This document shows positions 13,798 through 16,074 of a stretch of DNA of 64,000 bases, one piece after another. Position 1 is the first letter of the stretch. Each line of letters opens with the position of its first letter. The notes below the pieces were generated by a model, which worked only from the letters and a program-made list of their open reading frames with translations, made no database searches and was not told the DNA's origin. The translations under genes and the position numbers were made by a program. This DNA comes from an uncultured Alphaproteobacteria bacterium (lineage in GTDB: Bacteria > Pseudomonadota > Alphaproteobacteria > Rs-D84 > CACZYB01), in assembly GCA_963544995.1 (NCBI GenBank), contig CAUUHH010000001.1, positions 31,465 to 95,464 of the forward strand, read 5' to 3'.

Positions 13798-16074
13798 TTA
13801 TTCATCCTTTTCTTCGTCATCTTTTTCTTCACCACCACTATCATCTCCACCACCAGAAGAGCTATCTTCTGCTGGATCTTCTTTTGGTGCGATATTAGTA
13901 TTATTGTTAAAATTTTCTCCTATAATATTTGAATTCTTACTATCATTTTTAAATTCATGCTTAACTGGTTTATAGATATTATTATCATCAACATTAATAA
14001 TATCATCTCTTTTTGGTTTACCTTCTCCATCACCTTCACTTCCACTTGATTTTACTATCTCAGCTATTGTATCATTCGCAGTAAGCATAATGTCTTTGTT
14101 TAAAAATACCTGTATTCTGGTTCCGGCAGGTACGGTAAATGGTATGGTTTGTTTAGAGCTATCCTCTATTAATTTTTGCATAACACTTTTGAAATTTTGT
14201 TCTACCTCGGCCTTTATTTTATCACGTGAACTTAGATTTCTAACCTCAGTAGTATTATTCCAAACATATCCATTACTGTCAGCGCCTTTGGTAATAGTAT
14301 TATAAGTATTATCACCTCGTGTTACACGTGTTACGTATTGTGATGATGTTGGAAACAAACTTTCCATTGCAACGGGAAGAGCACTGTAAAGTAATGGTTT
14401 TAAAAATAATTGTTTCATATAACCAGTATCGTTTTTACCAGGAACACCTGCCCGTCCCTGTGCATCGGCAGAATAATTTCCAACTGCACCTAAATTAAAT
14501 TCTGCACCATCGGGCCGTATCAACCTGTTCCAATTTATATTAATTTTTTCGACTGCCGTAATATTATTAACATTTCCTTCTGCGATACCTATCAATTGAG
14601 TGCCAGCTGGAACTATTATAGTTCGACCATTGCCACCAAAGACATTTTTTTCAACTGTTGCTGTTATTTCTTGCTGATTTCCGGTGCTACTAGATAAAAA
14701 TATCGCCCTATTTAAAACGGCAGGAATAGGTTTTGATTGGCGAAGAACGTAACGTTCATCCTTTGGTTTACTAGATAATTGATCAAGGCCTGTAATAGAA
14801 AAAGGAACCTTTTTTGCCATTAGGGCATTTTTAATACCAAGTTTATCAGTTATTTGATATAAATCCTCTTCACCATCTTTACCATATTGGTCTTTTTTAG
14901 GATCTGCCTTTACCAATTCGCGATTTTTCATTATTTGTGAGAAATCAACATTTTCTGGTTGACTTTGTTTAATAATTTCATCTAGTAAAGGTAAGGTTAG
15001 TTCAACCCTTTTCTCCTCTGATTTTTTACTATCTATATTACTACCCTTTCCTATTATTGCGCCGGTCCCTGCCGCTTTTATCATGCCGTCCTCTTCCTGT
15101 TGACCTATAATACGAGAACAATTAGGTGCGAAAACCTTATTATCACCTTGGACCCAACCTATAAATACGCCAGAAAAATCATATGCCTTTGATGCATATT
15201 TTTTACAATCATCTGGTAAAATTTCTTTTTTTGGTTTGGAAGGAATAACCTCCTGAACGTCCGTTATTTTAATTTCTGGTTTTATTTCTGTGTTATCATT
15301 TGTATCGGTATCAGAATTAAAAAAGTCATCGTCCTGTTTTGAAGATTCCTCTTTGTTTTCTGGTTTTATATTTTCGATGGAAGATACGATTATTGGTAAA
15401 TTTACCTCTTTTTCACCCAATAATTTATCATTATTCATTTCATTATACTTTAACCTTAAAAAAAAGCTTTTATCCGTTTTTTCAGTTGGATTCCAAGTAA
15501 TATTTATTACACAACTGCTGCCTGCATCTATATTAGAACGGCTGGTACAATCATTTTTATCAACATTAAGCCCGACAACATTTTCAGTTAGTTTGGCATC
15601 AATTACTTTTATTGGATTATTTAAAACATAAACCATTACTGATTTAAAAGTTTCCTCACCAATTTTTTGGTTTTGTATTTCGACTCTGTCTGGATCAAAT
15701 GAAATTACAGGAGGAATATATGGAATAGAAGTATCATCATTTTTTCTATCATTTTGTCCCATTTGCATCTGAGATGTAGGATTTGAACCTTCAATTTTAT
15801 TTGTAATCTTTTTATCATTATCAGTTTTTATTGGTTCATGAACGCCAGCCTTTCTTTCCTGTTCCAATATTTGATTCATATTTTTCGTGGAACGGATCAG
15901 CATTACTATAACAAATGTTATAATCATAACACTGGCCGTGAAAATTAAAATAGAGTTAGTGCGTTTTATTGAAATGGCAGTAATGCTTTTTTTATCATCA
16001 GGAAGAGTATTTTCCTTTTCCTCAGCAACAGTTTCTGTGTTAGTTTTTTTTAATGATTTTTTAAATAGCCACAT
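13798..16074 (-). CDS. virB10: Type IV secretion system protein VirB10/TrbI family, unusually large (758 aa).
   Basis: N-terminal cytoplasmic segment plus TM (ILIFTASVMIITFVIVMLI). C-terminal barrel domain with diagnostic …RTIIVPAGTQLIGIAEG…WNRLIRPDGAEFNLGAVGNYSADAQGRAGVPGK…. About 280 extra periplasmic residues and an acidic G/D/E-rich ~80-aa C-tail. Confidence 0.8.
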   Translation of the reverse strand: MWLFKKSLKKTNTETVAEEKENTLPDDKKSITAISIKRTNSILIFTASVMIITFVIVMLIRSTKNMNQILEQERKAGVHEPIKTDNDKKITNKIEGSNPTSQMQMGQNDRKNDDTSIPYIPPVISFDPDRVEIQNQKIGEETFKSVMVYVLNNPIKVIDAKLTENVVGLNVDKNDCTSRSNIDAGSSCVINITWNPTEKTDKSFFLRLKYNEMNNDKLLGEKEVNLPIIVSSIENIKPENKEESSKQDDDFFNSDTDTNDNTEIKPEIKITDVQEVIPSKPKKEILPDDCKKYASKAYDFSGVFIGWVQGDNKVFAPNCSRIIGQQEEDGMIKAAGTGAIIGKGSNIDSKKSEEKRVELTLPLLDEIIKQSQPENVDFSQIMKNRELVKADPKKDQYGKDGEEDLYQITDKLGIKNALMAKKVPFSITGLDQLSSKPKDERYVLRQSKPIPAVLNRAIFLSSSTGNQQEITATVEKNVFGGNGRTIIVPAGTQLIGIAEGNVNNITAVEKININWNRLIRPDGAEFNLGAVGNYSADAQGRAGVPGKNDTGYMKQLFLKPLLYSALPVAMESLFPTSSQYVTRVTRGDNTYNTITKGADSNGYVWNNTTEVRNLSSRDKIKAEVEQNFKSVMQKLIEDSSKQTIPFTVPAGTRIQVFLNKDIMLTANDTIAEIVKSSGSEGDGEGKPKRDDIINVDDNNIYKPVKHEFKNDSKNSNIIGENFNNNTNIAPKEDPAEDSSSGGGDDSGGEEKDDEEKDE

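Follow-up and report, generated by a model that had tools for sequence, protein, structure and literature searches.

The window analysed here, a stretch of 64,000 nucleotides on contig CAUUHH010000001.1 from an uncultured alphaproteobacterium of the Rs-D84 lineage, encodes a VirB10 of unusual length in which the usual proline-rich linker is replaced by two folded modules, each with a conserved pair of cysteines. We propose that this protein is probably the VirB10 scaffold of a P-type type IV secretion system (T4SS) that is encoded on the chromosome and inherited vertically in an uncultured, AT-rich gut bacterium, and that the core of this system has been expanded through domains of both VirB9 and VirB10. 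According to the list of open reading frames (ORFs) and the translation, virB10 is a minus-strand frame at 13798..16074; it starts with an ATG at 16074, stops at the codon 13798-13800 and gives a protein of 758 amino acids. A sequence-only reading of this stretch had already described a giant VirB10. The ORF is genuine as described there, and contains both of the peptides that were quoted (KNDCTSRSNIDAGSSCVINITWNPTEKTDKSFFLRLKYNE, residues 173-212, and SSSGGGDDSGGEEKDDEEKDE, residues 738-758); the strand, which had not been stated, is minus. The frame is not a chance one, because about 50 clusters of close homologues (at 90% identity) with lengths of 690-758 amino acids exist.

The protein is a genuine member of the VirB10/TrbI family. 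Pfam TrbI (PF03743) matches residues 444-663 with 78.4 bits against a cut-off of 35, and it is matched by 47 of 47 family members. A family profile compared with solved structures finds ComB10 (2bhv, 2.9e-9) and the VirB10 of X. citri (6gyb), in the barrel region only. The top 20 Foldseek matches of the full-length model are all VirB10 C-terminal domains, and the barrel matches include 7o3j, 6gyb, 6x6k, 3jqo, 2bhv and 7spc (TrwE, X. citri VirB10, CagY, TraF, ComB10 and F-plasmid TraB, respectively). The TrbI match, the profile match to 2bhv and the Foldseek results place the VirB10 C-terminal beta-barrel at residues 423-666 (14077..14808, minus strand). The architecture outside the barrel was read from alignments of 27, 47 and 14 sequences, a full-length AlphaFold2 (AF2) model and a separate model of the second module only. 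The window protein is identical to sequence P0276 and differs by D391N and G532R from P0001, which headed the alignments and the structure model; this difference is immaterial to our conclusions.

The chain begins with a cytoplasmic N-terminus (residues 1-39), in whose region the motif TVSDEN..MLP..K.SKS is conserved, and a single transmembrane (TM) helix (residues ~40-62; the two together at 15889..16074, minus strand). Hydropathy has one peak only, with its maximum at residues 41-60, which is consistent with a short cytoplasmic N-terminus and one inner-membrane TM helix, and AF2 predicts a helix over residues 31-75. From the TM helix to the barrel the chain runs for about 360-380 residues, and given this spacing the earlier figure of about 280 additional residues was a fair estimate. 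In minimal VirB10s this region is a short, proline-rich, largely extended linker. Here the VirB10-type proline-rich periplasmic tract, which is frequent in the family though not found in every member, is absent: the two linkers that flank the first module contain 2 prolines (residues 63-117) and 4 prolines (residues 236-285). Linker 1 (residues 63-117; 15724..15888, minus strand) is variable and predicted to be disordered, with a predicted local distance difference test score (pLDDT) below 50 for residues 74-116, a length of 24-55 amino acids within the family and 22% pairwise identity. Linker 2 (residues 236-285; 15220..15369, minus strand) is acidic, indel-rich and likewise predicted to be disordered (pLDDT below 50 for residues 237-286), and within the family it varies from 43 to 107 amino acids with 24% identity.

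The first module, D1 (residues 118-235; 15370..15723, minus strand), is modelled with a pLDDT of about 90 as an eight-strand immunoglobulin (Ig)-like beta-sandwich of the ASH/PapD-like type, and carries the invariant cysteines C176 and C188. D1 is a diverged, single-copy member of the ASH/HYDIN-like Ig superfamily; we place it there because its structural matches are joined by sequence relatives that are bona fide ASH-repeat proteins. After VirB10s, Foldseek returns CEP192 domain 7, HYDIN, the ASH domain of OCRL1, MSP, ciliary central-pair Ig domains and the C-terminal Ig domain of VesB (E 1e-5 to 3e-4), and D1 superposes on the solved ASH/PapD-like domains 6fvi, 2ys4, 2e6j, 3qbt and 1m1s (Foldseek E 2e-5 to 2e-4). 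An exhaustive phmmer search compared residues 118-372 with 1.84 billion representatives; D1 alone matches giant bacterial proteins with 3-15 tandem copies. Matches with E down to 3e-21 fall on proteins that have 3-10 ASH/HYDIN_VesB_CFA65 repeats, and those D1 relatives that were scanned are unambiguous ASH, HYDIN_VesB_CFA65-like Ig, Cep192_D4 or DUF1573 repeat proteins. The ASH/HYDIN-VesB-CFA65-like Ig domains (PF15780, PF22544) share the fold of D1, and the relatives are tandem repeats in giant bacterial surface proteins. D1 is unlike them in standing as a single copy inside a VirB10, in its lineage-invariant cysteine pair and in scoring under the Pfam gathering threshold, and the Pfam ASH model is matched at E < 0.01 in only 3 of the 47 family members.

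D1 is thus the extra folded beta-sandwich that the sequence-only reading had suspected around a segment with a cysteine pair. What that account of the extra length missed was a second domain, a longer antenna loop and an enlarged VirB9. The second domain, D2, is, as modelled, a small beta domain of unrecognised fold that is followed by helices. Its beta part (residues 286-348; 15031..15219, minus strand) has six short strands and the invariant cysteines C290 and C319; the strands form three hairpins of the type hydrophobic-I-G-x4-5-[DG]-x-hydrophobic, with pLDDT of 82-91. A Foldseek search of D2 against BFVD gave a best match of only E 0.096. Two helices (residues 349-392; 14899..15030, minus strand; 56% pairwise identity) come after the beta part, at residues 349-370 and 378-390 in the AF2 model, and have low confidence in the model of D2 alone.

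Conservation is distributed very unevenly over these parts. The mean pairwise identity over 45 full-length sequences is highest in antenna helix a2 (80%), the C-terminal part of the barrel (79%), the beta part of D2 (75%) and the N-terminal part of the barrel (68%), and falls to 43% in D1, 42% in the antenna loop, 22-24% in the linkers and 15% in the C-terminal tail. In other words, D2 is far more conserved than D1 and on a par with the barrel. All four cysteines and the D2 residues G302, G306, W307, G324, G330, G342 and P362 are invariant down to 24% identity.

The giant D1-D2-barrel build is standard across the lineage. The close homologues all come from metagenome-assembled genomes (MAGs) labelled Alphaproteobacteria, "Rickettsiales bacterium" or "bacterium", and the gene is present in GTDB species representatives from deer rectum, rumen, Hadza human gut, bank vole and termite guts. 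About 17 further clusters are more distant (23-38% identity, 570-830 amino acids) and keep the same D1-D2-TrbI order. Ten of these were scanned with Pfam; TrbI was found in all, and all the named ones come from uncultured gut Alphaproteobacteria-type MAGs. The distant members were reached by the exhaustive phmmer search alone, as a word-indexed family-profile search returned the close family only. The sequence-only reading had allowed that orthologues of the same length might be routine in the lineage, with insertions that are disordered. The first part of this is what we find and the second is not, D1 and D2 being folded and constrained. A literature search on Rs-D84 brought up no work on the T4SS of this lineage among the best 10 of 599 matches.

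The other half of the proposed expansion lies in VirB9. The genes form a tight minus-strand operon, virB8-virB9-virB10-orf125, with gaps of 68 bp between virB8 and virB9 and 37 bp between virB9 and virB10. The order virB8-virB9-virB10-orfX, which we refer to as the cassette, recurs in 17 of 19 genome loci. The virB9 gene (16112..17623, minus strand) encodes 503 amino acids, twice the usual size, with a signal peptide, a CagX/VirB9 domain at residues 52-295 (Pfam CagX, 66.4 bits), a low-complexity linker of about 120 residues rich in Asn, Pro, Gly and Met, and a SPOR domain (PF05036) at residues 462-501 (about 16121-16240). The SPOR match scores 24.5 bits against a cut-off of 21 and is confined to model positions 36-76, the C-terminal half; five of seven relatives tested also score above the Pfam cut-off (22.9-32.6 bits). 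VirB9 is about 490-550 amino acids long in all loci, and among the papers of the library searched there was none that links VirB9 to SPOR. For VirB10 together with an Ig-like domain, the same library gave a single paper, a review of immune evasion by Brucella. SPOR domains bind peptidoglycan.

This VirB10 keeps the canonical plan of a cytoplasmic N-terminus, one TM helix, a barrel and a two-helix antenna, and we hypothesize that it spans both membranes. By their position, D1 and D2 would occupy the stretch of periplasm that separates the inner membrane from the VirB9/VirB10 core. Their copies, about 14 if the usual stoichiometry holds, could then build an extra periplasmic layer or spacer under the core. 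D2 may be a critical protein-protein interface and indeed the main one, because it is constrained like the barrel. The two cysteine pairs would form periplasmic disulfides, and the SPOR domain of the co-encoded, enlarged VirB9 would attach the core to peptidoglycan. The net result would be a core "expanded" by added VirB9 and VirB10 domains, as in Cag and Dot/Icm.

Among known systems, the closest structures (E 1e-10 to 1e-7) belong to the minimal VirB10s pKM101 TraF (3jqo), R388 TrwE (7o3j) and X. citri VirB10 (6gyb), which share the TM anchor, the C-terminal barrel and the two-helix antenna. To our knowledge, they have no long C-terminal tail. Their antenna loop measures 16-32 amino acids (PMC12407924), against 37-53 in the family of the window protein. 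The H. pylori Cag system is alike in that its homologues of VirB10 and VirB9, CagY and CagX, are enlarged by extra periplasmic domains, and the barrel of CagY is structurally similar (6x6k, E 5e-10). The CagY segments that precede the barrel form a periplasmic ring of their own, and in this protein of about 1900 amino acids the extra mass consists of helical repeats (PMC9371333). Cag is encoded on a pathogenicity island with its own ATPases, whereas the genes here are scattered. Enlarged VirB9 and VirB10 are what the expanded cores of Cag, Dot/Icm and the F type share with the window system, which is known here from genes and models; those cores also have a further periplasmic ring and core subunits specific to each system. 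T4SSs are known to diversify by the addition of domains to these two proteins (PMC9371333).

The rvh systems of the Rickettsiales (with RvhB10; for example in R. typhi and, as WD_0006, in Wolbachia wMel) are closer in genomic setting: they are chromosomal, belong to AT-rich, host-associated Alphaproteobacteria and have their genes scattered among housekeeping genes. They also share the VirB8-VirB9-VirB10 order and an antenna that is longer than usual. An rvh T4SS has duplicated virB4, virB8 and virB9, multiple virB6 and no virB5. However, the Rickettsia operon continues with virB11-virD4, whereas virB10 in the window is followed by orf125 and then by a convergent miaB. RvhB10 is a protein of about 480 amino acids with a Pro-rich tract and an antenna of about 127, unlike the 758 amino acids, 92-residue antenna and missing Pro-rich tract described here; in R. 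typhi, VirB10 has 481 amino acids with a Pro-rich tract, and the VirB9 proteins have 158-247 (PMC2653234) in contrast to 503 with SPOR in the window. The exhaustive D1-D2 phmmer search matched no protein of about 480 amino acids, the size of RvhB10.

Several points weigh against reading the locus as the expanded core of a T4SS. VirB4, VirB6, VirB11 and VirD4 are absent from the 64-kb window, which has no T4SS gene besides those of the operon, and from the flanks of up to 10 kb of most related loci, and within this window and these flanks a complete T4SS machine is not demonstrated. The NCBIfam VirB10 equivalog-domain model (NF038091) gives 77.5 bits, far below its cut-off of 220, a sign of how divergent the protein is. 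The Pfam ASH match on D1 is sub-threshold, at 19.8 bits in the full protein and 23.1 in the isolated domain against 27. The full-length AF2 model has a predicted template-modelling score (pTM) of 0.36, too low to place the domains relative to one another. Finally, we infer the disulfides C176-C188 and C290-C319 from the invariance of the cysteines alone, and the formation of a ring and the partners of D1 and D2 we purely infer.

VirB11 is nevertheless encoded elsewhere in the lineage. The large ORFs of 23 loci were clustered and scanned for T4SS ATPases, which yielded VirB11 only, in six loci (L006, L007, L009, L010, L016 and L017). In these, a VirB11 of 321 amino acids lies convergent just after orfX (in L017 at 12456-13421, minus strand) and has its best match, over the full length, to TIGR02788 (E 7e-39). 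Homologues of this VirB11 are abundant in related MAGs, where they are 64-100% identical, and in two further loci (L024, L025) the gene is solitary among housekeeping genes. The end of the window (63548-64000) matches, by synteny, a gene that stands two genes away from the VirB11 of relatives, and for one VirB11 cluster (P0191) the longest contig has the same length, 107,739 bp, as for the proteins of the window. The genome of the window thus probably encodes VirB11 a few kb past the window end. The remaining ATPase candidates near the cassette were rejected as tRNA synthetases, GyrB, BipA, DprA and a glycosyltransferase.

The separation of the cassette from ATPase genes (save for the VirB11 beside it in six relatives) and the varied housekeeping neighbourhoods in which it is found would also fit an orphan core, re-purposed as a stand-alone tether or conduit that joins inner membrane, peptidoglycan and outer membrane, possibly at the septum, instead of a T4SS that translocates substrates. 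In distant relatives the cassette stands in still other housekeeping settings, an rpoB/ribosomal-protein cluster or mutS/thrS. The general ability of SPOR domains to bind peptidoglycan would suit such a tether. So would the conservation of VirB9, whose identity of 60-75% among the close-family loci L001-L017 (and 52% in L018, the most distant locus) is close to that of the housekeeping proteins SecD, GatA, GatB and MiaB (66-79%). However, scattered T4SS genes are normal in functional rvh systems of the Rickettsiales (PMC2653234, PMC12407924), a well-conserved VirB11 exists in the lineage and lies beside the cassette in those six relatives, and few parts of the protein are as conserved as the channel-forming antenna helices. 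We therefore consider an orphan core unlikely.

An equally doubtful alternative is that the cassette is the B8-B9-B10 part of a competence T4SS similar to ComB of H. pylori, which would import DNA and not export effectors. ComB10 (2bhv) is the best sequence match among solved structures, the NCBIfam ComB10 model is the second-best match of the protein (E 3e-15), and like comB6-10 the operon clusters its genes with neither virB11 nor virD4 adjacent. In two termite-gut relatives, the cassette is directly followed by dprA, a gene for DNA processing in natural transformation (L012:8629-9741 and L015:4670-5806, both minus strand). This adjacency is a weak hint for DNA uptake, but only two loci out of more than 20 show it, and dprA occurs widely. 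Moreover, the ComB10 score of 56.1 bits is far under its cut-off of 300 and lower than that of the VirB10 model, ComB10 is without D1 and D2, and the lineage has VirB11, which is not known to take part in the ComB system of H. pylori.

With a similarly small probability, the cassette may have gone further and diverged from T4SS into a self-contained, peptidoglycan-anchored, envelope-spanning machine, either a septum or cell-wall tether or conduit or a device for DNA uptake, in which D2 would have a novel fold and form a novel ring in the periplasm. If this were true, the cassette would be a lineage-defining envelope structure of gut-associated Alphaproteobacteria with reduced genomes and not a secretion accessory.

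Setting these alternatives aside and returning to a VirB10 scaffold of a T4SS, the parts that might reach the cell surface can be considered. The antenna (residues 550-641; 14152..14427, minus strand), with AF2 helices at residues 550-573 and 616-641 that are 70-80% conserved within the family, is the predicted outer-membrane-spanning element. Its loop (residues 576-612, 37 amino acids; 14239..14349, minus strand) has pLDDT below 50 and measures 37-53 amino acids in the family. An antenna usually has about 57 amino acids with loops of 16-32, and about 127 in Rickettsia and Wolbachia (PMC12407924); at 92 amino acids with a 37-residue loop, the one described here falls in between. In solved core complexes the outer membrane is crossed by the two-helix antenna only, and in pKM101 an epitope placed in the segment that joins the two antenna helices is found outside the cell (PMC9371333). 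By analogy, the antenna loop is the part of the protein most likely to form a variable element exposed at the cell surface.

The sequence-only reading had instead suggested that the acidic Gly/Asp/Glu tail would, if topology is conserved, be exposed at the cap in the outer membrane and could serve there as an appendage that faces the surface or binds cations, which we regard as very improbable. Such a tail of about 80 residues does exist. Past the barrel, residues 667-758 (92 amino acids; 13801..14076, minus strand) form a short helix (668-678) and then 80 disordered residues (679-758; pLDDT 30-39, below 50), with 26 Asp or Glu in the tail and a net charge of -15. In the model, however, helix a3 of the antenna has already come back from the membrane when the chain forms its last barrel strand (E662-664), and the tail follows only beyond that strand; by this placement it should begin in the periplasm or the core chamber, not at the cell surface. 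The extracellular element in solved complexes is the inter-helix loop (PMC9371333), a correspondence of fold that we take from Foldseek. The long form of the tail (58-98 amino acids, net charge -10 to -30) is present in 26 of the 45 full-length relatives, which make up the sub-clade nearest the window protein, and in the other 19 the tail is cut to 11-33 amino acids with a net charge of -3 to -7. More distant members have unrelated tails or none. Across the family the tail thus ranges from 11 to 98 amino acids at the 15% identity given above, and negative charge is the one property that is kept, so its composition at least may be under selection in the long-tailed relatives. As the charge is retained while the sequence is free, a compositional role is suggested, perhaps an electrostatic or entropic one inside the core chamber or beneath it.

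Two further observations concern these C-termini. Many of them in the family finish in an acidic stretch whose last residue, or one close to it, is aromatic (..EEYEE, ..EVYY, ..GGY, ..IEWY, ..VQYY; alignments A2 and A5). In the distant locus L023, a protein of 137 amino acids encoded downstream of virB10 ends in a motif (GRDEFGDV..D..G.YGYDGD) like the VirB10 tails of P0058, P0066 and P0067.

Least credible of all is that the extra length is neutral filler that neither folds nor serves a function, a low-complexity expansion of the kind typical of AT-rich reduced genomes: the linkers (residues 63-117 and 236-285) and the tail are indeed length-variable, poorly conserved and predicted to be disordered, but the confident folding of D1 and D2, the invariance of their cysteines and the barrel-like conservation of D2 effectively refute it for both domains and leave it plausible for the linkers only.

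The remaining members of the operon are smaller. The virB8 ORF (17692..18420, minus strand; Pfam VirB8, 41.8 bits) has 242 codons as listed, and its true start is probably M27 at about 18342, giving about 216 amino acids, because homologues have 212-226 amino acids and conservation starts there (MRQLDEQRYLW). At the other end, orf125 (13410..13787, minus strand) encodes a small, putatively secreted protein with a signal-peptide-like N-terminus and neither a cysteine nor a lipobox, probably of 122 amino acids from an ATG at 13778. It has no Pfam or NCBIfam family match. It is found downstream of virB10 in 17 of 19 genome loci (45-62% identity) and also in the distant L023, and this conserved adjacency, by itself, makes it a candidate for an extra core-complex subunit. 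No VirB7-like ORF was found upstream of virB8 in the window's clade, and the window has no room for one. In L023, an ORF directly upstream of virB8 (5543-5716, plus strand) encodes a lipoprotein of 57 amino acids (MKYSFLALLAVVLLSGC..., with an LLSGC lipobox) that is a plausible VirB7. A scan of the operon for promoters and terminators gave counts no higher than in shuffled sequence.

The operon is embedded in housekeeping genes, with tig, dnaN, secD, gatA, gatB and miaB on one side and a DUF192 gene, rbfA, surA, lptD and lptFG on the other, in DNA of about 30% G+C. The DUF192 protein (18530-19366, plus strand; 278 amino acids) starts with about 90 residues rich in Lys, Ala, Val and Pro (AKKAAVK-like), followed by a TM helix. 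Antisense to its gene lies an ORF of 173 amino acids (18499-19020, minus strand), which was rejected as a gene; its composition is repetitive and biased towards F, T, A and L. In relatives, an ATP synthase operon of about 7 kb and nine genes is located between the DUF192 gene and virB8 (L001:682-7536, minus strand; in the same position in L003, L005, L007, L009, L010, L013, L016 and L017), and is absent from this place in the window. Its first ORF (479 amino acids) matches Pfam ATP-synt_ab and is accompanied by a homologous ORF of 505 amino acids; by gene sizes and order alone, it resembles an N-type ATPase. This 7-kb block upstream of virB8 had been considered as a source of T4SS genes and was rejected once it proved to be the ATP synthase operon.

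T4SS cores diversify through domains added to VirB7, VirB9 and VirB10, and solved "expanded" cores are few (Cag, Dot/Icm and F). Because the architecture described here is routine within its lineage and extends this known theme, its value is incremental and not paradigm-changing. The lineage nonetheless represents a compact and different solution, in which an Ig-like domain and a tightly conserved, cysteine-containing domain replace the flexible proline-rich linker and are paired with a SPOR-bearing VirB9. D2 in particular is a well-defined target, both for structure determination and for understanding how VirB10 couples energy at the inner membrane to the gate in the outer membrane. The family is widespread in uncultured gut Alphaproteobacteria of ruminants, humans, a vole and termites, and these bacteria may use their T4SS for the manipulation of hosts or neighbours, or for the exchange of DNA.

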